Source: a virus. From it: 15,336 nucleotides of DNA. The position numbers and the translations under genes are program-made. This document shows positions 556-15,204 of the stretch, in pieces (within the stretch, counting starts at the first letter, position 1; each line of letters starts with the position of its first letter). The DNA lies in UHGV virus genome UHGV-1739098; one strand, written 5' to 3'. The notes below the pieces were generated by a model. It saw nothing but the letters and a program-made list of their open reading frames with translations, was not told where the DNA came from and ran no database searches.

Positions 556-1992
556 TCAGAATCCTCCTTTCTTCTTGGACTGCGGTTCCTCGCGTTCACG
601 TCGGCGCATTTCAGCAGACTGTTGGTCTGTGTCATAAATAGCGCCATTTGCCTGAATGCAATACACCGTGCCGGTATTGCCATGACGATTGAGACGAAGG
701 ATTAGTTCGGTTTCACCAGGAGGAACGCTGTCATCAAAAGCACCTTCCCGATGGATCCCAACCCAATAATCGCAATCCTGTTCAATCTGCCCTGTATCTC
801 GTGAGTCACTTGGTAATGGGCGTTTATTGGTTCTGCTTTCCAGTGCGCGGTTAAGCTGCGTCAGAAGCACAACAACGCAATCAAGCTCTTTGGCAAGGTT
901 CTTCAGTCCTTTGGTGATCATGCCGTAAGCAAGGTCGTTGCGATCGGCCTTCTCAGCGGTCATTAGTGTCAGGTAATCGACCAGAATCATGCCAACACAT
1001 CCTTTTTCTCGCTTGATTCGACGGCTTTCGCTAACGATTTGAGCCAGAGATAATCCCGGCGTGTCGTCGATGTAAAGCAGGTCGATTTCACTCAAACGAT
1101 TAGCTGTTTCGATCGCCCTGTTGAAGTCACCATCGTAATCACCCTGATAGCCGTCATCAGCGTCATTTGTCGCCGGAAGGTAAAAAATATTCGGGTTAAC
1201 ACCAGACTTCTGCCCTACCAGTTTTTCCAGTATCTGATCACCTGGCATTTCAAGGCTGAACATCAGAGCGGGCTTTTTCTCATGCACTGCGCAGTTGATT
1301 GCCATCTGGCTGTATAGCGTCGTTTTCCCCATCTTAGGGCGAGCGCCAATGACAAACAGAGAGCCTTTCACCAGACCTTTCGGTGACAGCATCCTGTCCA
1401 GCGATGGGATCCCTGTGCTCATTCCTCGTTGTTCGCCTGACGGGTCAAATCGCTTCTCAAGGTCGCTAACCCAGCCTTCCATGACCTCACCAAATGAACG
1501 AAGGCCGCGACGCGATCCGGTTTTTGCATGGTCTGTCAGTTGCGTGAAAATCGACTGAATAGCTTCGTACTTCTGTGTTGCAGTCATTCCGTTGCGGGAA
1601 TAGAGCAATTCCGTCGCTTCAGTCATGCGGTTGATGGCGTAGCGTTCCATTGCGGTTTCACGAACCTGCATTGCATAGGCAACGATGTTTGCGGCGCTTG
1701 GCGTGTTCTTTGCGATCTCAGCGATATAAGCAAAACCGCCAACAGACGCCGTTAACGATTTACGCTCCAGTTCATCGAAAAGCGTCAGGCCATCTACTGG
1801 CTTTTGCTCCCGGTGCATTCTGGTTATTTCTTCGAAAATGATTTTGTGTGGTCGGCTGTAAAATGAATCAGGCTTCAGCATCGCCAGAACTTTCTGGACG
1901 CGCTCACTGCTGTCATCATCCAGAAGCAATCCACCAATCACCGCCTGCTCTGCCTCGATGCTATGGGGCGGCGCATAAAAATTATCGGTCAT
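556..1992 (-). CDS. DnaB-family replicative DNA helicase (P22 gene 12-like)
   Basis: DnaB N-terminal signature HSIEAEQAVIGGLLLD and Walker A motif GARPKMGKTT. The ORF track starts at a GTG at 2007; the ATG at 1992 preceded by GAGGG is the more likely start. Confidence 0.9.
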   Translation of the reverse strand: MTDNFYAPPHSIEAEQAVIGGLLLDDDSSERVQKVLAMLKPDSFYSRPHKIIFEEITRMHREQKPVDGLTLFDELERKSLTASVGGFAYIAEIAKNTPSAANIVAYAMQVRETAMERYAINRMTEATELLYSRNGMTATQKYEAIQSIFTQLTDHAKTGSRRGLRSFGEVMEGWVSDLEKRFDPSGEQRGMSTGIPSLDRMLSPKGLVKGSLFVIGARPKMGKTTLYSQMAINCAVHEKKPALMFSLEMPGDQILEKLVGQKSGVNPNIFYLPATNDADDGYQGDYDGDFNRAIETANRLSEIDLLYIDDTPGLSLAQIVSESRRIKREKGCVGMILVDYLTLMTAEKADRNDLAYGMITKGLKNLAKELDCVVVLLTQLNRALESRTNKRPLPSDSRDTGQIEQDCDYWVGIHREGAFDDSVPPGETELILRLNRHGNTGTVYCIQANGAIYDTDQQSAEMRRREREEPQSKKKGGF

Positions 1993-2881
1993 CGTGTTCA
2001 CCCTCACGAACTTTCAGGTAGGTATTATCGTTAAGCAGGAAATCAAATCCCTTTTTGTGCCAGACGGTTCCGCGCTGATGGTTTGGGCGCTCTTCGAACA
2101 TCCATCGGCAATTTTCGCCTACGTAGCTCAAATAATTTCTCCAGTCCTGCATCGTGAACCCATGCCCGTCAAGCTGGCGGGTTATCACTCCGGCTTTGCG
2201 CCAGAACGTTCGGATCTGGTTTTTACGCTTGTCATTCAGTGCGCGGATTCTTGGCGCTTCAGGAAGGATTTCGTGGTAAGCATCGACAACATCCTGACAG
2301 CTGACGGGAGGTTTTTTCTTGTCAGACTTTTTGTCTGCTGTGGCACTCTCTAATACGTCAGTATTAGAGATAATATTATTATATTCTTTATCTGTGGTAA
2401 TTTGCTGGTAATCTGCTGGTACAGTATTGCTTACAGGCATTGGTATTGCTGGCTTTGAGGTGGTAATTTGCTGGTAATCTGCTGGTACAAAATTTGACTG
2501 ATAATCGTCATATTTCTCTACCGAGAAAACTGAGAATTTACCGTGTGAAACCCAGTCAATCATGCCGAGTTTTTTGAACTTTCTAAGCAGGTACTGAACG
2601 CGATCTGGTTTGAGTCCTGTTTCAAACGCCAGAGAGTTTCTACCGCCAAGTAGCTTCCCTCTGCCTACCAGAATTTCTCCTGCGTCAGTCATTACATACT
2701 CAGGCGTATGCTTTGCTTTGAGGATTAAGTGAACCCACAGATGCGATGCTTCTGCGTCCTTGTAAAACGGCACATCCATAATTTTACGGTGCAGCAAGGC
2801 ATACCCCTTACCGCTGCTTTGATGCGGTTGTTGTAGCCTTCTGGCCTCTCTGGCTTCGGCTAGATTAGATATGTTACTCAT
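1982..2881 (-). CDS. Replication initiation protein (lambda O / P22 gene 18-like) carrying the ori iterons
   Basis: Sits immediately upstream of, and overlaps, the helicase gene. AAGGAG Shine-Dalgarno. An internal exact 29-bp direct repeat gives a protein-level repeat [10 protein letters not shown], and an AT-rich tract lies next to it, which is the lambdoid ori layout. Confidence 0.75.
2395..2489. repeat. Putative origin of replication: iteron array inside the initiator gene
   Basis: tggtaatttgctggtaatctgctggtaca occurs exactly twice (2395-2423 and 2461-2489). Each copy holds sub-repeats TGGTAAT(t/c)TGC. An AT-rich tract (taatattattatattctttatc, about 2370-2393) is adjacent. Confidence 0.6.
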
Positions 2882-3020
2882 GACCTTTCTCCTTCTGCAT
2901 CAGCTTCACTTTTTCCAACTCAGCCCGGAATCGACCAGGCTGCTTGAAGCTGGACAGGAAGCGATCACGTAGTATGTTTTTGTGCATTTTGTCCTGGTAA
3001 GGACTGAGTGGTTTTGTCAT
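2874..3020 (-). CDS. Hypothetical 48-aa protein, translationally coupled between the 134-aa ORF and the initiator gene
   Basis: Its ATG (3020-3018) overlaps the TAA of the upstream ORF as TAATG. Translation [48 protein letters not shown]. Its 3-prime end overlaps the initiator start. Not in the ORF track (under 60 aa). Confidence 0.4.
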
Positions 3021-3424
3021 TAAGCCTCCTCTACTTCGTAATCAGCGAAGTAACCGGTAGACATTTTTAAAAACCTTGATTCGGTGACTGTGTAAGCCTT
3101 CCTGCCTTTCCTCTCCTTGCCTTCAGGCTCTATGAGGTGGCACGAATAAATGATTCTGCGCTGCCAGTTGCCTGGCATTTCCACCACTGCCAGAACCTCA
3201 AGAATTCTCTTTCCTTCAGCATCAGCGGTGTAAAAACACTGATCACCATAACCACAATCGGCTGGCTCATAATTTTTGTGACAACCGCCAATCCAGCGCT
3301 CATCGGTATCCACGTTGCCGTCATAAGACTGATAATCTGTGCATACTAAGATAAATGGATATACGGTTTCGAACTTGTCACCGGCCTTTATGCCGGTGTT
3401 TACTTGCTTGGTTTGTCCTGGCAT
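3020..3424 (-). CDS. Hypothetical 134-aa protein inserted between cII and the replication genes
   Basis: ORF-track ORF with a strong AGGAG Shine-Dalgarno. Cys/His-containing ([16 protein letters not shown]). No family recognised. Confidence 0.6.
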
Positions 3425-3456: not shown

Positions 3457-3753
3457 TCAGAATTGCATATCAATTTGCTTAAAATCCTCGGTGGCGGCCG
3501 GGTATTTTTTCTTTGTGATTTCATCAAGCGCATACTTAAAAGCCCTACTAATCGGACTGATGTCTGATGCCATTCCGAAAGCACACAAGACCGAAGCAAT
3601 AAATCTCCAGTCCGTTCTGCTTATCTTCGATTCATGACAGCCAATCATCTTTGCCAGACCGCGCTGGGTAAGCGTTGACAGGTTGATGAGTAAATCAGTT
3701 TCAGCGCGATCAATTTCTCGCTGTGTTGGCTTGCTGTAACTTGCTTGTGTCAT
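3457..3753 (-). CDS. cII: CII-like transcriptional activator
   Basis: 98 aa. The C-terminal KKKYPAATEDFKQIDMQF resembles lambda CII KKRPAATERSEQIQMEF. Lies immediately downstream of cro, as in lambda. A TTGC-N6-TTGC motif sits in its first codons on the opposite strand. Confidence 0.75.
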   Translation of the reverse strand: MTQASYSKPTQREIDRAETDLLINLSTLTQRGLAKMIGCHESKISRTDWRFIASVLCAFGMASDISPISRAFKYALDEITKKKYPAATEDFKQIDMQF

Positions 3754-3763
3754 TTCTTAATAT
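3731..3763 (+). promoter_or_regulatory. Candidate pRE (CII-activated promoter for repressor establishment)
   Basis: TTGC-tgtaac-TTGC at 3731-3744 is the CII recognition pattern TTGC-N6-TTGC. TAATAT follows at 3758-3763. It lies within and antisense to the 5-prime end of cII and points toward cro and cI, as lambda pRE does. Confidence 0.5.
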
Positions 3764-3791
3764 TTCCAATAGTGAATAGTTAGTTGAAAGG

Positions 3792-3809
3792 TATGCGTGG
3801 AAACGCATA
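3792..3809 (-). terminator. Hairpin between nutR and cII (tR1-like position)
   Basis: 7-bp perfect stem tatgcgt/acgcata with a 4-nt loop. On the minus strand it is followed by CCUUUC, which is only weakly U-rich, so it may be Rho-dependent or a structural element. Confidence 0.3.
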
Positions 3810-3838
3810 TGACCTTAGTTGGTCAGATATCTTGGGGC

Positions 3839-3884
3839 TCGCTTTGTCAGCGACGTAGGACGAATGTCCATTGTGAAAATAGCG
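3839..3884 (-). promoter_or_regulatory. nutR: boxA-like plus boxB hairpin
   Basis: Minus-strand boxB is UCGCUGACAAAGCGA (3853-3839), nearly identical to the nutL boxB. Upstream on the minus strand is CGCTATTTTCACA (3884-3872), resembling lambda boxA CGCTCTTACACA. Confidence 0.55.
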
Positions 3885-3891
3885 GTGTTAC

Positions 3892-4137
3892 TTATGCTGC
3901 CTGATTCGGTTTTGGAAACAGGTGTGGCAAATCGGGGCGAATTTCGTAAGCCTTGATCTGCCCTCCAGTGGCGTTAACGATGGCGGTAACTTTCTCTGGA
4001 GAGACCAACCCGCCTTTCAGCCATTTGTGTACTGCTGGCTGCGTTACACCACACTTGTCGGCAAGGCGCTTTTGGCTACCGACAATTTTCAAGGCTCGTT
4101 GAATTACTAAATTCATGAGCATACCTCTTGTGGTCAT
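3892..4137 (-). CDS. cro: Cro-like HTH repressor (YdaS/DUF1019-like)
   Basis: HTH segment KRLADKCGVTQPAVHKWL and a C-terminal TGGQIKAYEIRPDL motif typical of YdaS-type Cro proteins. Divergent from cI across the operator region. The true start is probably the ATG at 4116 (M-N-L-V-I), 9 nt after AAGAGG. Confidence 0.75.
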   Translation of the reverse strand: MTTRGMLMNLVIQRALKIVGSQKRLADKCGVTQPAVHKWLKGGLVSPEKVTAIVNATGGQIKAYEIRPDLPHLFPKPNQAA

Positions 4138-4149
4138 TAGTTATAACCA

Positions 4150-4215
4150 AAGATAACTCAAGTTATAAAAAATAGCAATAACCTTTGTTATTTTACTTTG
4201 GATAACCGTAGTTAT
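4150..4215. promoter_or_regulatory. OR region: three operators overlapping pR and probably pRM
   Basis: Three 14-bp palindromes ATAAC-N4-GTTAT at 4153-4166, 4178-4191 and 4202-4215, with centres 24-25 bp apart. Minus-strand pR: -35 TTGCTA (4178-4173), 17-bp spacer, -10 TATCTT (4155-4150), overlapping O1 and O2. Confidence 0.6.
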
Positions 4216-4227
4216 AGATTTGTGGGT

Positions 4228-4935
4228 ATGAAAACATTCGCAGAAAGACTAAATGCAGCCATGAGCTCAGCAGGGGTATCACAATCACAGCTTGCTGACA
4301 TGGTTGGAATATCTCAGCCAGCCATACAGAAGATGTCGTCCGGTAAAACAAACGGATCTCGCAAGATGGTTGAATTAGCCAATGCTTTAAAAGTGCGTCC
4401 TGAATGGCTTAGTTCTGGTATTGGTGAAATGAGGGATGGTGCACATGAAGAACCATCCAATGTCCGTGAGTCATCTTTAAAAGCTGTGGTATGGGAAGAC
4501 ATTAAAAGAAACGATGACGAGTTTGTTGCGTTGCCTCTTCTTAACGTTTCGCTTTCAGCTGGAAGCGGTAGCTGCGAGCTAGAGGAATCATCGGAGTTCT
4601 CTTTGGTTTTCAGAAAGCACTATCTGAAAAAGATGGGAGTATCTGAAAGATCAGCCAAGCTAGTTAGGGTTGTAGGGCAAAGCATGGAACCAACCCTTCA
4701 CGATGGCGATGTTGTTGGTGTTAACACGCAAGATACCACAATCAGAGATGGTAAAACCTACGCTATTTGCCAGTCTGATTTGTTACGAGTAAAAACATTA
4801 ATCGCCACCCCTACATCGGTGATAATCAGATCAATAAATCGCGAAGAGTACCCGGATGAAGTAATGGATAGAGATGAATTTCATGAAACCGTAAGGATTA
4901 TTGGCAGAGTATTCTGGTCGTCTCATAGTTGGTAA
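4228..4935 (+). CDS. cI: CI-type repressor with N-terminal HTH and C-terminal S24 (LexA-like) autopeptidase domain
   Basis: HTH region QSQLADMVGISQPAIQKM. S24 motifs VVGQSMEPTLHDGDVV and a later K. The ORF-track start at 4198 is a TTG that sits inside operator O2/O3; the ATG at 4228, just past O3, is more likely. Confidence 0.85.
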   Translation: MKTFAERLNAAMSSAGVSQSQLADMVGISQPAIQKMSSGKTNGSRKMVELANALKVRPEWLSSGIGEMRDGAHEEPSNVRESSLKAVVWEDIKRNDDEFVALPLLNVSLSAGSGSCELEESSEFSLVFRKHYLKKMGVSERSAKLVRVVGQSMEPTLHDGDVVGVNTQDTTIRDGKTYAICQSDLLRVKTLIATPTSVIIRSINREEYPDEVMDRDEFHETVRIIGRVFWSSHSW

Positions 4936-4975
4936 CCGATAATCAGAAGAAGACTTACGGAAGTGCGGAGGGATA

Positions 4976-5272
4976 ATGGAATTTCTGATAGTTTTTGTTG
5001 TTGTTTTGGTCATCATTCTTTTTGTTTTGCTAAGCATTAGCAAAAAGCTATCTCAAATGATTGAACATAGCTCTAATCGCGCAAAAGAAGAAGAGCATAT
5101 AATTGATATAAAAGAGATTCTCTCTGATATAAAAATCACATTAGATGAAATAAAATACACAACAGATCTAATTGAACAGTATAAAATACCAACCCCAAAC
5201 GAGAGAAAAGCAATAGATCAATATCGTATTGACTTAGAAATCGACGAAATGCTAAGCAAAAGAAAAGACTAA
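4976..5272 (+). CDS. Hypothetical 98-aa membrane protein (N-terminal transmembrane helix plus charged helical tail); moron at the rex-equivalent position
   Basis: GGAGGG Shine-Dalgarno 5 nt before the ATG. N-terminus EFLIVFVVVLVIILFVLLSI. Visibly very AT-rich compared with cI. Followed by a terminator. Confidence 0.6.
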   Translation: MEFLIVFVVVLVIILFVLLSISKKLSQMIEHSSNRAKEEEHIIDIKEILSDIKITLDEIKYTTDLIEQYKIPTPNERKAIDQYRIDLEIDEMLSKRKD

Positions 5273-5277
5273 AAACA

Positions 5278-5304
5278 CCAGGCCTCAGCGCCGGGTTTTC
5301 TTTT
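5278..5304 (+). terminator. Candidate intrinsic terminator ending the cI / 98-aa transcript
   Basis: GC-rich imperfect stem (ccaggcctcagcgccggg) followed by ttttcttttcc. Confidence 0.45.
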
Positions 5305-5469
5305 CCTGCCGTTCACCACCCAATCAACCATCCTCATCATAGACAAGCATCAAGCCAAAGGTAACACCTTCACCCCGCACGCAAGCCCTCAAACACCAAT
5401 CAATCAGCAACATTTACAAAAATAAAATACCTTTGTTATCCATCACTTATAACTTATTTACCATAAAAT

Positions 5470-5511
5470 ATAAATTAGGTTATTGACCACACCTATAACC
5501 TAAGTTATCTT
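5470..5511 (+). promoter_or_regulatory. OL operators and pL promoter
   Basis: OL1 ATAACCTAAGTTAT at 5495-5508 and OL2 ATAAATTAGGTTAT at 5470-5483. pL: -35 TTGACC (5483-5488), 17-bp spacer, -10 TATCTT (5506-5511). Same promoter-operator design as pR. Weaker operator-like half-sites lie further upstream (5427-5460). Confidence 0.55.
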
Positions 5512-5579
5512 TAAGCCATCAGCAGGACGCACTACTCACCATGGCGGTGAATATACAACGATTCGAATATGAATCTACG

Positions 5580-5594
5580 GCGCTGACAAAGCGC
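5580..5594 (+). promoter_or_regulatory. nutL boxB hairpin (P22 type)
   Basis: GCGCTGACAAAGCGC, identical to the P22 nutL boxB as I recall it. Lies between pL and N. Confidence 0.7.
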
Positions 5595-5855
5595 AATAAC
5601 CAAAGTGAACTTTGGGGTGTGGTGAAGCCAGCTAGTCACTGGCAAGTGCTTACCTACTGTTGAGCGGTGAAGCGCTCCCAACGCTAGCAATAGCGTGGAC
5701 GAGATGGGGGGCCGCGGGCGATAAGGCCGCCATAACGCGCACGTTGTCGCATGGAAAAATCACTGGGGTGCCGGTTATACCCCTCCGAATGAGACTCAAC
5801 AAGCTGGAGCTAGACTACCAGCCACCACACCACCAAAGTTCATCAGGAGGTCTAT

Positions 5856-6239
5856 ATGACACGCAGAACTCAGTTCAAAGGCAATTCACGTTCTCGTCGT
5901 CGTGAGCGTTTAAAGGCAAAGGCATTAGCTAACGGCGTACTGGCCCGCGAAGAAGCAATAAGTTCAGAAGTATTACACCGCCCTACTCTAAGCAGATCGC
6001 AGATTCAGGCTAAAGGTACTCACGAAACGCCTGAGCGCATAGAAGACGCTAAGCCAATTAAGTTCATAGCACAGGACGTGATCTGGCAACAGAAAGAATA
6101 CAGACGCAATCTGGAGCGAGCGGCCATTGTGTACGCGAATGAGTTTGGACATAAGCAACCAGAAACTGGTGTATGTCTTCCAAACGTAGCCATTTACTCG
6201 GCAGGCTACCGGAAATCAAAACAACTGACAGCAAGATGA
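5856..6239 (+). CDS. N: N-type transcription antiterminator (P22 gene 24-like)
   Basis: Arginine-rich motif GNSRSRRRERLKAKA near the N-terminus. The C-terminal VAIYSAGYRKSKQLTAR resembles the P22 gp24 C-terminus. GGAGG Shine-Dalgarno. First gene downstream of pL and nutL. Confidence 0.8.
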   Translation: MTRRTQFKGNSRSRRRERLKAKALANGVLAREEAISSEVLHRPTLSRSQIQAKGTHETPERIEDAKPIKFIAQDVIWQQKEYRRNLERAAIVYANEFGHKQPETGVCLPNVAIYSAGYRKSKQLTAR

Positions 6240-6298
6240 CTTGTGTTGGTCGCCAGAAAATGAAATTAGGCAGTAAGCTACTGTATGAGGGGTGAGAT

Positions 6299-6487
6299 AT
6301 GCATAAATGTCAGTTCTGTGGATACATGTTTGAATCAAATGAAATGCAACGTATTTCGTTAAACCTTATCGGTAGGCCATACAACATTTGCCTAGGATGT
6401 AGCGAGAAATACAAAAACAAAGACATGTGGGACGACAATAAAAACGATATCGACTGGAATAAAGTGCCATGTATTGATGATAGTTAA
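6299..6487 (+). CDS. Hypothetical 62-aa zinc-ribbon-like protein (CxxC ... CxxC)
   Basis: GAGGGG Shine-Dalgarno. CQFCG and CLGC motifs. AT-rich. First gene after N. Confidence 0.5.
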   Translation: MHKCQFCGYMFESNEMQRISLNLIGRPYNICLGCSEKYKNKDMWDDNKNDIDWNKVPCIDDS

Positions 6488-7020: not shown

Positions 7021-7115
7021 GCACTGTGTATTCATTCCAACGAGTGAATACACGGAGCAATGTCGCTCGTAACTAAACAGGAGCCGACTTGTTCTGATTA
7101 TTGGAAATCTTCTTT

Positions 7116-7142
7116 GCCCTCCAGTGTGAGGGCATTCTTTTT
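7116..7142 (+). terminator. Candidate intrinsic terminator immediately upstream of the 324-aa gene
   Basis: GCCCTC-cagtgt-GAGGGC stem-loop followed by attcttttt. Confidence 0.5.
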
Positions 7143-7155
7143 GCCTGGAGGAGAT

Positions 7156-8130
7156 ATGAGTAACGCATTGCAAATAAGCATTATTAAAACCGACGCTGGT
7201 AAATGTTTTATCACTGATTGCACAGCAAAGGACGGTTATCACTACCAGTACCATCAATCTAAAATTGCTGATCTCCTATTTGACGGAGTTAAACCCAAAG
7301 CCAGCTTTCACAAAAACTGGTTTGAAATTGAACATTACCCTGAAAAGGTTGAGAGAATTATCTCTGGTGAAAGAATTAATGTTCGCTACGAGCTTAAAGA
7401 TGCTGAACTTGAGAGTAAAAAATACCCTTTGACACTTAGTTACAATGAGCGTGACGCAGTGGACGAGGATATCAGAGGCTCTCTTTATGAATACAAATAC
7501 GATACTGCACCTGATTACACCTCTCCAGTTGATGTTGAATTCACATTAGTATGTGAGGTTGAAAATTTTCGTGACGCACCAGAATTTAATTACTCTGCAA
7601 TTAGGCAGGTTGAGTTCCGGGAGGAGAGGTACGTTGTAAAAAACATAAACGTAAAACACTCTCTTGTTGACTGCATCATAATTCCTGAGCCTTTGCGGGC
7701 TAACAGCCCTTGTGAAATTTCATCAAAAGAAATGTATGACATTGTACGCCAGCACGTAAAAGATAACATCGACAACAAACTGGCTAGAATAACAAGTGAT
7801 TACGCATTTTGCTTTACCGTTAAAAAAATAATACCGCTCCTTAAGCCTCACACATATTCATATCAGGATATTTTTGCCAGAACCAAGAAGCAAAGAGCAA
7901 AGTTGCACTTTAAGACTGACACGGTGAAGGAAATTGAAATTTTCCAAATGACACATGACCAAGAAAATTACAAAGGTTATACGGCGATTAAAGGGTTCAA
8001 AGCCAATAACGAATGGGAGCTAAAGGAAATGATTGATAACTTCCTTACGACGCTTATGGATACCATTCACGCGCCAATAGAGCAATGCTCATGCTGTGGC
8101 GGTACAGGCTACACGCAAGACATCAAATAG
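7156..8130 (+). CDS. Hypothetical 324-aa protein, AT-rich, insulated by terminators; function unknown
   Basis: Strong GGAGGA Shine-Dalgarno 4-9 nt before the ATG at 7156. The ORF track's upstream extension to 7060 runs through the terminator and is unlikely. Ends with a CSCCGGTGY motif. No recognisable catalytic motif. Confidence 0.6.
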   Translation: MSNALQISIIKTDAGKCFITDCTAKDGYHYQYHQSKIADLLFDGVKPKASFHKNWFEIEHYPEKVERIISGERINVRYELKDAELESKKYPLTLSYNERDAVDEDIRGSLYEYKYDTAPDYTSPVDVEFTLVCEVENFRDAPEFNYSAIRQVEFREERYVVKNINVKHSLVDCIIIPEPLRANSPCEISSKEMYDIVRQHVKDNIDNKLARITSDYAFCFTVKKIIPLLKPHTYSYQDIFARTKKQRAKLHFKTDTVKEIEIFQMTHDQENYKGYTAIKGFKANNEWELKEMIDNFLTTLMDTIHAPIEQCSCCGGTGYTQDIK

Positions 8131-8150: not shown

Positions 8151-8226
8151 CATACCAGCATATCAACAGAGATTCATTCGAGTCTCTTTCGCTATGACAA
8201 CAACATTCAACTTAAGGAACTTCCCC

Positions 8227-8361
8227 ATGATGCACTTTCAGCTCGCGGGTAGCGGCGTCATGTCCGCTTTCTACCCGCACGAATCTGAATTATCACGCCG
8301 AGTTAAACAATTAATCAGAGCAGCAAAGAAACAACTGGAGGCGTTATGCGCAATGAAATAG
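8227..8361 (+). CDS. cIII: CIII-like protein (candidate FtsH inhibitor), 44 aa
   Basis: MMHFQLAGSGVMSAFYPHESELSRRVKQLIRAAKKQLEAL resembles the lambda CIII core (AIAG ... PSESLLERITRKLR). AAGGA Shine-Dalgarno with 8-nt spacing. Lies just upstream of kil, as in lambda. Not in the ORF track (under 60 aa). Confidence 0.45.
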   Translation: MMHFQLAGSGVMSAFYPHESELSRRVKQLIRAAKKQLEALCAMK

Positions 8362-8498
8362 CCATCAATCACCAGATGCTTCGTGCAGCACAAAACAAAG
8401 CAGTAATAGCCAGATTTATTGGTGATTCCAAAATGTGGCTTGAAGCAAATAAAGCGATGAAATCAGCGATCAACATTCCGTGGTATCGCAGGAAATGA
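8346..8498 (+). CDS. kil: Kil-like protein (candidate host cell-division inhibitor), 50 aa
   Basis: GGAGG Shine-Dalgarno. The motif AVIARFIGDSKMWLEA resembles lambda Kil (IATFIGDEKMF) as I recall it. Position between cIII and the recombination genes fits. Confidence 0.5.
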   Translation: MRNEIAINHQMLRAAQNKAVIARFIGDSKMWLEANKAMKSAINIPWYRRK

Positions 8499-13819: not shown

Positions 13820-14167
13820 GTGGAAGAAGAAATCTTCACTCGTGAAGAGGCAGCGTCGTATCTGAAGGTAGACAAAGGCACTATCACGCAGTGGATACGA
13901 AGTGGACGACTTCAGGCCGCAAAGATAAATCCAGATAAACCTAAAAGCCCATATCGCATTTGCAAGTCAGACTGCATTGCGGCGCTTAAGTCTGTGAGAC
14001 ACAATAGCGCGGTGAATGCGGTTGATGTGCAGGAGGTTAAAGCATGTCAATCAAACTACGCGGTGGCACGTGGCACTGCGATTTCGTCGCGCCAGATGGA
14101 TCAAGAATTAGACGCTCTCTTGAAACATCGGACAAAAGGCAAGCGCAAGAACTTCACGATCGTCTGA
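13820..14167 (+). CDS. xis: Excisionase-like HTH protein
   Basis: GTG start after GGAG. The segment FTREEAASYLKVDKGTITQWIRSGRL is typical of excisionase/AlpA-type HTH proteins. Immediately upstream of int, overlapping it by about 124 nt in another frame. Confidence 0.6.
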   Translation: MEEEIFTREEAASYLKVDKGTITQWIRSGRLQAAKINPDKPKSPYRICKSDCIAALKSVRHNSAVNAVDVQEVKACQSNYAVARGTAISSRQMDQELDALLKHRTKGKRKNFTIV

Positions 14168-15204
14168 AAGCAGAAGCGTGGAGAGTAAAAAATCTCGGGG
14201 AATCACCGAAAAAGCTATTCAAGGAAGCCTGCATACGGTGGCTGCGTGAGAAATCGGATAAGAAGTCCATTGATGATGACAAGAGCATTATATCGTTCTG
14301 GATGTTGCACTTCAGAGAAACCATTCTCTCTGACATAACAACAGAAAAAATAATGGAGGCGGTAGACGGGATGGAAAACCGCCGCCATCGCCTGAACTGG
14401 GAAATGAGCCGGGACAGGTGTTTGCGGCTTGGCAAGCCAGTGCCGGAGTATAAACCAAAGCTGGCAAGCAAAGGAACGAAGACGCGGCATCTGGCAATAC
14501 TTCGCGCTATTCTCAATATGGCTGTTGAATGGGGATGGCTTGACAGGGCGCCCAAAATATCAACACCACGCGTTAAGAATGGACGAATCAGATGGCTTAC
14601 AGAGGAGGAATCGAAGCGCCTGTTTGCAGAAATTGCTCCTCATTTCTTCCCTGTGGTCATGTTTGCAATCACGACAGGCCTTCGCCGTTCCAACGTTACA
14701 GACCTTGAGTGGTCACAGGTCGATCTGGATAAGAAAATGGCATGGATGCACCCTGATGAAACAAAAGCTGGCAATGCGATCGGAGTTCCTCTTAACGAAA
14801 CCGCATGCCAGATATTAAGAAAACAGCAGGGGCTCCATAAGAGATGGGTATTTGTCCACACCAAACCTGCCTACCGAAGCGACGGAACAAAAACAGCAGC
14901 GGTAAGGAAGATGAGAACCGACAGCAACAAGGCATGGAAGGGAGCGTTAAAGCGGGCAGGCATTAGCAACTTCCGCTTCCATGACCTGAGGCATACCTGG
15001 GCAAGCTGGCTGGTTCAGTCCGGTGTCTCTCTTCTTGCACTTAAAGAGATGGGAGGATGGGAAACTCTCGAAATGGTTCAAAGATACGCCCACCTTTCAG
15101 CCGGGCATCTCACCGAGCACGCGAGCAAAATCGATGCGATTATAAGTCGCAATGGCACAAATACGGCACAAGAGGAGAACGTGGTTTACTTAAATGTTAG
15201 GTAA
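14044..15204 (+). CDS. int: Tyrosine integrase (P22/lambdoid tRNA-targeting type)
   Basis: C-terminal catalytic motifs HDLRHTWASWLVQSGV and MGGWETLEMVQRYAHL; the N-terminal arm resembles P22-type integrases. Its stop lies 14 nt from the tRNA 3-prime end. Confidence 0.9.
   Translation: MSIKLRGGTWHCDFVAPDGSRIRRSLETSDKRQAQELHDRLKAEAWRVKNLGESPKKLFKEACIRWLREKSDKKSIDDDKSIISFWMLHFRETILSDITTEKIMEAVDGMENRRHRLNWEMSRDRCLRLGKPVPEYKPKLASKGTKTRHLAILRAILNMAVEWGWLDRAPKISTPRVKNGRIRWLTEEESKRLFAEIAPHFFPVVMFAITTGLRRSNVTDLEWSQVDLDKKMAWMHPDETKAGNAIGVPLNETACQILRKQQGLHKRWVFVHTKPAYRSDGTKTAAVRKMRTDSNKAWKGALKRAGISNFRFHDLRHTWASWLVQSGVSLLALKEMGGWETLEMVQRYAHLSAGHLTEHASKIDAIISRNGTNTAQEENVVYLNVR

Follow-up and report, generated by a model that had tools for sequence, protein, structure and literature searches.

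In phage lambda the repressor gene cI is followed by rexA-rexB, a co-oriented pair that lies before the operator-promoter module OL/PL and gene N, has a membrane component and ends in the terminator t_imm. The interval between cI and N is a known mosaic hotspot, carrying rexAB in lambda and bstA in BTP1-like prophages (PMC8585504). BstA of the Salmonella prophage BTP1 is a large cytoplasmic, DNA-associated abortive infection (Abi) protein with a cognate anti-BstA DNA element (PMC8585504). We analysed the same interval in the virus genome UHGV-1739098, a stretch of 15,336 nucleotides (nt; the window), which is the early region of a lambdoid Escherichia coli prophage, with the plus strand running in the direction that is leftward in lambda. 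An open reading frame of 98 codons (ORF98) starts here 40 nt past the cI stop codon on the same strand; it lies between cI and OL/PL, with an N-type antiterminator gene beyond, so that the rex-equivalent, cI-co-oriented position claimed in an earlier note on this DNA held true (Table 1). ORF98 is a real gene under purifying selection. The reading which we favour, tentatively and with less than even confidence, is that of a lysogen-expressed, membrane-tethered binding module that hinders superinfecting phages when they reach the inner membrane or have only just passed it.

The locus resembles rexAB in all respects named above, the terminated end and the membrane component included. Unlike Rex, which combines a 279-amino-acid (aa) cytoplasmic sensor with the four-helix RexB, it offers one 98-aa gene with a single transmembrane helix, and an internal promoter is not evident in ORF98. 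No Rex family was among the Pfam and PHROG matches of ORF98 down to an E value of 1. Like bstA, ORF98 lies behind the repressor gene, presumably under a shared promoter, in diverse prophages, and has homologues outside prophages (PMC8585504), whereas it encodes a small membrane protein in which no similarity to BstA was detectable, and there is no sign of a self-immunity element. ORF98 is thus an uncharacterised cargo of the known cI-N hotspot kind, which will not surprise the specialist.

In composition-preserving shuffles of positions 4936-5304, an open frame of at least 98 codons appeared in 7 of 5000 trials. The ratio of non-synonymous to synonymous substitution rates (dN/dS) was 0.15-0.17 in comparison with Citrobacter homologues of 77-78 % protein identity (dS about 0.8). 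All 33 ungapped E. coli copies, representing 15 alleles, were intact and differed by 10 synonymous and 12 non-synonymous, mostly conservative polymorphisms. The start codon follows the GGAGGG sequence at a short spacing of only 3 nt. The G+C content of ORF98 is 30.0 % versus 43.4 % for cI and 45.7 % for the window, and falls within the lowest 0.07 % of the window's 297-nt stretches. The earlier note had read the GGAGGG ribosome-binding site from the letters and judged the low G+C content relative to cI by eye; both observations were confirmed, and all elements that it listed were located in the sequence.

The genetic context of ORF98 was compared among eight lambdoid immunity regions (the window, C. 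freundii L003, L005, L040, L041, L043, L049/L050 and L051), and in each of them the homologue begins 1-44 nt past a co-oriented S24-type repressor gene. In those loci for which the flanking DNA was read, the divergent cro and cII genes lie to one side and an N-like gene to the other. The repressors of the eight loci are only 18-64 % identical to each other, without correlation to the identity of the ORF98 homologues; between the window and L003, cI shares 23 % and the ORF 78 % identity. The homologue was lower in G+C content than its cI in eight of eight loci. At the DNA level, the window and the Citrobacter loci are homologous only over positions 4966-5299, i.e., ribosome-binding site, ORF and the hairpin behind it. 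Because this homology begins at the ribosome-binding site, no promoter travels with ORF98; the gene thus moves by recombination, always to the same landing place and never with a promoter.

A promoter scan found three promoter-like sites versus 3.9 expected, thus no excess over chance. One promoter-like site inside cI (4901-4929) is absent from the other loci and was not taken as a promoter. In the lambdoid architecture, the only upstream plus-strand promoters to be expected are those making the cI mRNA. An exact TTGC-N6-TTGC sequence, the pattern bound by CII, overlaps the first codons of cII; its placement relative to cII is that of PRE in lambda, and it is a candidate for a PRE-like establishment promoter reading towards cI and ORF98. 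Since ORF98 has no promoter of its own and the arrangement behind cI is the sole one kept across eight immunity types, its co-transcription with cI is a strong inference. Sitting directly behind cI, in the rex slot of lambda, ORF98 is probably made in lysogens.

The same or related cI genes carry other cargo elsewhere, which identifies the slot of ORF98 with the known hotspot. Locus L007, with a 99 %-identical cro-cI, holds a 120-aa (L007:3282-3644) and a 42-aa (L007:3660-3788) gene pair without family match; its homology to the window breaks at 4937 and resumes at 5277. Locus L046, with a 94 %-identical cI, encodes a DUF3024 protein (L046:3336-3677), which matches the PADLOC defence candidate PDC-S43 (7e-42), and a 177-aa protein (L046:3867-4400). 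The O157:H7 locus L047, with a 78 %-identical module, has no co-oriented gene. In both L046 and L047 the homology to the window resumes only at OL (5408-5418). The cargo genes of L007 and L046 could be further lysogen-expressed functions.

The interpretation in the earlier note, a moron such as one for superinfection exclusion or Abi, was borne out in part. Morons in the sense of Hendrix and colleagues (PMC3594210) are extra DNA of different base composition between genes that are adjacent in relatives. Insertion and foreign composition were found for ORF98, independent transcription signals were not: a promoter of its own is missing, and in E. coli the terminator belongs also to the phage backbone, therefore it is not a self-contained moron. 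In contrast to such independent transcription units, ORF98 is a passenger cistron of the cI operon.

The whole of ORF98 (residues 1-98 of 98) matched the PHROGs v4 family phrog_18389 (E = 6.4e-62), to which no function has been assigned; all 17 aligned relatives hit this family as well. The remote-homology search proposed in the earlier note thus yielded a family, and none with an assigned function. No significant match was obtained in Pfam, NCBIfam, PADLOC, the PDB or by fold comparison. Matches to DUF5385, DUF4446, MscL and ZorB were below threshold and driven by the transmembrane helix or by composition, and are not regarded as homology; the only one from PADLOC-DB v2 was ZorB (E = 0.017, not significant), confined to the transmembrane segment. 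The best PDB profile matches were de novo designed coiled coils, which reflect composition and not ancestry. Known exclusion or defence proteins (Sie, Abi and Imm in Pfam and PHROGs; PADLOC-DB v2) were not matched. The accessions WP_000394868 and LC744178 occurred in no paper found, and keyword searching of the literature yielded analogies only. The family is small and appears to be unstudied, the gene being annotated as hypothetical.

Close relatives form 11 clusters at 90 % identity, with E. coli and Citrobacter as the only hosts. Among 1.84 billion representative proteins, searched exhaustively with a profile, just 14 family members were found, all of 94-126 aa and with shared architecture and C-terminal motif. 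Among 5426 complete E. coli genomes, 98 carried ORF98 (about 2 %). The gene is frequent among Shiga-toxin-producing strains of O26 and O111 as well as among isolates from cattle, pigs and humans. A tblastn search with three family members against 50,697 phage records retrieved a single unannotated Stx1a phage. Of two scans of genome contigs, the first found nothing and the second one Pseudomonas locus: in Pseudomonas gingeri (L048), a distant relative lies in the cargo region of a conjugative element, flanked by TraI_2 and TraG_N genes. It follows closely on a gene for an AbiJ_NTD4/PDC-S32 protein, and the two may form a two-gene unit.

All family members are built alike: the N terminus is hydrophobic, the linker that follows varies, and a conserved motif lies at the C-terminal end. 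The earlier note had described one N-terminal transmembrane helix with a charged helical tail, and hydropathy as well as AlphaFold2 bear this out. The anchor, FLIVFVVVLVIILFVLLSI, is followed by two lysines; across the family its hydrophobicity is kept and its sequence is not, therefore the specific function is expected in the C-terminal helix-turn-helix, the first helix serving as anchor. AlphaFold2 modelled ORF98 as all-helical with a break at the Pro-Thr-Pro turn of residues 69-73, at a mean predicted local distance difference test score (pLDDT) of 80-81 but a predicted template modelling score (pTM) of only about 0.3. The coiled-coil prediction likewise called for in the earlier note returned a heptad helix at residues 41-68, whose pattern was equalled in 28 of 2000 shuffles. 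These heptad statistics, together with the profile matches to designed coiled coils, suggest oligomerisation. Four residues of the C-terminal motif (Y69, P72, D81 and E88) are invariant in 17 aligned sequences, and the motif persists down to 24-30 % identity.

Lysine or arginine was absent before the hydrophobic helix in 17 of 17 members, and the 15 residues that follow it include one to four of them. Under the positive-inside rule, such a distribution predicts an N terminus outside and a tail in the cytoplasm. The tail (residues 23-98) contains 18 acidic and 14 basic residues (net charge about -4), and this acidity disfavours nucleic-acid binding. An anchor without polar residues disfavours a pore-lining helix. 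A cleaved signal peptide or a lipoprotein is unlikely, because a basic n-region is missing, the protein contains no cysteine, hence no lipobox, and the hydrophobic core spans 18-19 residues before the two lysines. The likeness to an i-spanin (Rz-like) is superficial: i-spanins combine an N-terminal anchor with a hinged coiled coil and are encoded in the lysis cassette, with an o-spanin lipoprotein gene embedded or adjacent, whereas ORF98 is located in the immunity region, has no partner gene and a charge pattern that indicates the opposite topology. No second plus-strand frame of at least 40 aa overlaps ORF98. A type I toxin, typically under about 60 aa and paired with an antisense RNA, was rejected as well, since ORF98 has 98 aa with a conserved soluble domain, and positions 3700-6300 gave no Rfam match (E <= 1).

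The earlier note had also claimed a terminator behind the gene. A consensus terminator scan called none, and the hairpin of the window has an A.G mismatch in its stem and, with -8.9 kcal/mol, is not better than shuffles. The claim gained its support from comparison: about 30 other E. coli copies have a perfect 7-bp stem (ACCCGGC/GCCGGGT, about -13.7 kcal/mol) with a T-run after it, mostly TTTTCTTTT, and the L040 homologue, 47 % identical, has the compensated stem AACCGGC/GCCGGTT. Thus it is the perfect and compensated stems elsewhere, and not the window copy alone, that argue for a terminator. Position 5280 is A in the window and C in the about 30 E. coli copies and in two of three Citrobacter-type loci checked; by its stem, this C-to-A change is one that weakens the terminator of the window. 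L007 has the hairpin in common with the window, yet behind other cargo, which assigns the E. coli terminator to the backbone. The C-rich spacer downstream is also kept in L007 with the hairpin. It has the highest excess of C over G among the 120-nt stretches of the window (top 0.02 %) and could be a Rho-utilisation (rut) site backing up termination of the cI-ORF98 transcript.

In the Citrobacter-type loci, a conserved gene of 68-75 aa on the opposite strand converges on the same hairpin as the ORF98 homologue (L003:6324-6530(-), L004:4383-4607(-), L005:6324-6548(-), L043:4733-4960(-)). It had no Pfam or PADLOC match and is absent from the window. At the corresponding site, the O157:H7 prophage without ORF98 carries a gene of 69 aa (L047:3445-3654(-)), with a faintly similar core, GGA..E.I..G..IS.DAI.

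Small membrane-anchored proteins that are expressed by prophages or early in infection and act alone are P22 SieA, T4 Imm and Sp, HK97 gp15 and lactococcal Sie2009. Their genes have other genomic positions than ORF98, no homology to them was detected in PHROGs, Pfam or PADLOC, and the predicted functional domain of ORF98 faces the cytosol. Small inner-membrane superinfection-exclusion proteins are treated in PMC10883804 and PMC11436027. A role of ORF98 in phage exclusion or Abi is plausible. ORF98 would be a functional cargo gene of the cI operon in a lambdoid E. coli prophage. As it has its own ribosome-binding site and no promoter, it would be transcribed solely behind cI, as the downstream cistron of a common message; this would start at the maintenance promoter, or at the PRE-like promoter while lysogeny is being established, and would end at the hairpin. 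Residues 3-21 would hold the protein in the inner membrane, with a two-residue N terminus outside and about 75 residues in the cytoplasm, comprising the heptad helix, the Pro-Thr-Pro turn and a second helix together with the four invariant residues. A binding module is suggested since sequence conservation is confined to the C-terminal motif and polar residues that could line a pore are missing from the anchor. Probably as an oligomer, the protein would bind or obstruct, in the lysogen, a conserved partner on the cytoplasmic side of the membrane, and a superinfecting phage would be stopped at DNA entry or in early development. The outcome would be superinfection exclusion, less likely abortive infection.

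Several points weigh against this proposal. The claim of exclusion or Abi draws on position and neighbours only; the PDC models are candidates and not validated systems, and guilt by association is weak evidence. The contexts of distant family members in Pelagicoccus and in metagenomes are uninformative. The topology is predicted from the positive-inside rule alone. With the weakened terminator of the window, read-through towards OL/PL is possible. One genome has ORF98 interrupted by an IS3 element, hence the gene is dispensable for prophage carriage. The strict coupling to cI without a promoter equally suits a protein of the lysogenic switch.

Among the alternatives, Abi by membrane damage is the nearest rival, though with a small chance of being correct. 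A phage product would bind the cytoplasmic motif, and coiled-coil oligomers would then depolarise or permeabilise the inner membrane in the manner of RexB, PdpSau and AbiP. The rexAB position, the heptad helix that could drive oligomerisation and the AbiJ-type protein next to the distant homologue agree with this, as does the architecture of an anchor plus cytoplasmic domain, which ORF98 shares, as prophage cargo, with PdpSau of Staphylococcus aureus prophages and AbiP of Lactococcus (PMC10127798). However, PdpSau has 278 aa, a positively charged, OB-fold-like nucleic-acid-binding domain and a linkage to lysis genes (PMC10127798), whereas ORF98 has an acidic tail that is helical throughout, and its linkage is to cI. 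Homology to RexB, PdpSau or AbiP was not found in Pfam, PHROGs or PADLOC, and a gene for a partner sensor is lacking. Conserved polar or small residues, as needed to line a channel, are absent from the anchor, and its sequence is not conserved across the family.

ORF98 may alternatively belong to the lysis-lysogeny circuit, as a membrane-tethered factor that tunes establishment, maintenance or induction via a membrane-associated host factor such as the FtsH/HflKC protease, which controls CII, or via the repressor switch, as was recently proposed for RexA; we regard this as unlikely. It would best account for the strict, promoter-less place after cI, which is kept in eight immunity types although repressor identity has fallen to about 20 % and which differs from that of self-contained morons, and the additional expression from a PRE-like promoter during establishment would suit such a role. 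FtsH acts at the membrane, where the cytoplasmic domain of ORF98 would be held. Rex functions are reported in a preprint to assist the lysogenic-to-lytic transition (10.1101/2021.04.19.439022). But the same cro-cI-OL modules exist without ORF98 or with unrelated cargo, and one copy is broken by an insertion element, consequently ORF98 is not required for the switch. Besides, the phage already has a CIII homologue, and some distant members of the family are found outside phages, one of them on a conjugative element. That the family as a whole is not a defence but an unrecognised, optional component of lysogeny circuits, made only together with cI and acting through the conserved helix-Pro-helix on a host factor such as FtsH/HflKC or on the repressor switch, is improbable in our estimate; it would explain the promoter-less position after cI in at least eight immunity types.

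A factor of host fitness or lysogenic conversion, acting in envelope physiology, stress tolerance or colonisation and carried as cargo because the cI operon is constitutive in lysogens, is quite unlikely as well. The low G+C content, the behaviour as cargo of a slot and the frequent occurrence in the Shiga-toxin producers and the animal and human isolates named above are compatible with it, and virulence phenotypes were the first to be connected with bstA, which occupies this position too (PMC8585504). The sequence, though, points to no particular host process, and the presence of members on phages and mobile elements of unrelated hosts fits a target in conflicts between mobile elements better than a niche trait. 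A non-functional remnant or chance frame in an AT-rich spacer, which the lack of an annotated function, of a family outside PHROGs and of close relatives beyond E. coli and Citrobacter might suggest and which the earlier note had considered in the form of a degenerate remnant, is highly improbable and effectively refuted by the conservation pattern, i.e., a dN/dS of 0.15, intact ungapped copies throughout, a motif kept to the lowest identities and a frame length rarely reached in shuffles.

The surroundings of ORF98 are those of a lambdoid early region (Table 1). Prophages of E. coli O26:H11, O111:H8, O19:H7 and other types share 99-99.9 % identity with the window, as does the Stx1a-converting phage Stx1a_10051. 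The RefSeq annotation of cI corresponds to the 708-nt form, and recT/gam-like genes are on the plus strand. Two further genes are uncharacterised: a 356-aa ORF (phrog_20113; 7060-8130, plus strand) in a part of the PL operon with a low G+C content (about 38-41 %), and a 134-aa ORF (phrog_30464; 3020-3424, minus strand) between cII and the O-like replication gene. A small RNA from the 3' end of cI in the lambdoid prophage NC-SV, svsR, is reported to limit phage infection (PMC12803456). In the window the 3' end of cI lies at about 4850-4935; an Rfam search of positions 3700-6300 (E <= 1) found no RNA family.

Table 1. Position of ORF98, its parts and neighbouring features in the window; the last line refers to locus L048.
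Feature	Position	Strand	Remarks
DnaB-type helicase gene	556-2007	-	
O-like replication gene	1982-2881	-	
cII	3457-3753	-	
Exact TTGC-N6-TTGC (CII-binding pattern)	3731-3744	+	overlaps first codons of cII; sole exact plus-strand match in the window; candidate PRE-like promoter
cro	3892-4137	-	
OR region	4138-4227	between cro (-) and cI (+)	repeated TTATAAC/GTTATAA half-sites, recurring in OL
cI repressor gene	4228-4935	+	235 aa; HTH_3 PF01381 (8.5e-07); Peptidase_S24 PF00717 (1.6e-17); phrog_4 (2e-53)
cI-ORF98 spacer	4936-4975	+	Shine-Dalgarno sequence GGAGGG at 4967-4972
ORF98	4976-5272	+	98-aa predicted single-pass membrane protein; member of phrog_18389
Predicted transmembrane anchor	4982-5038	+	codons 3-21, purely aliphatic, then KK; mean Kyte-Doolittle hydropathy 3.67
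Heptad (coiled-coil-like) helix	5096-5179	+	codons 41-68; I/L at 7 of 8 a/d positions
Family motif	5150-5254	+	codons 59-93; IKY(T/V)TD-IE-YK-P-x3-ER-x-ID-x4-D-x-EI; helix-Pro turn-helix
Putative intrinsic-terminator hairpin with TTTTCTTTT	5277-5304	+	stem 5277-5283 / 5290-5296
C-rich, G-poor spacer	5298-5417	+	38 % C, 9 % G; rut-like; between terminator and OL
OL/PL module	5408-5530	.	operator half-sites (~5425-5520); homology to L046 and L047 resumes here
Promoter-like site TTGACC-17-TATCTT	5483-5511		pointing towards N
N-type antitermination protein gene	5856-6239	+	start of PL operon; PF25694 (4.4e-15); phrog_271 (4e-39)
cIII and kil homologues	8194-8498	+	CIII homologue 8194-8361
Integrase gene	14044-15204	+	
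Distant ORF98 relative, Pseudomonas gingeri	L048:3989-4357		122 aa; 67 nt past AbiJ_NTD4/PDC-S32 protein gene (L048:3112-3921), beside a ParDE pair

The analysis defines phrog_18389 as a family with a clear architecture and with four invariant residues that are amenable to mutation. If ORF98 blocks phages, it would represent a new type of single-gene, membrane-anchored exclusion or Abi system and would bear on phage susceptibility and on how Shiga-toxin phages pass from strain to strain. Should its role instead be to tune the lysogenic switch, it would matter for prophage induction and hence for toxin release.

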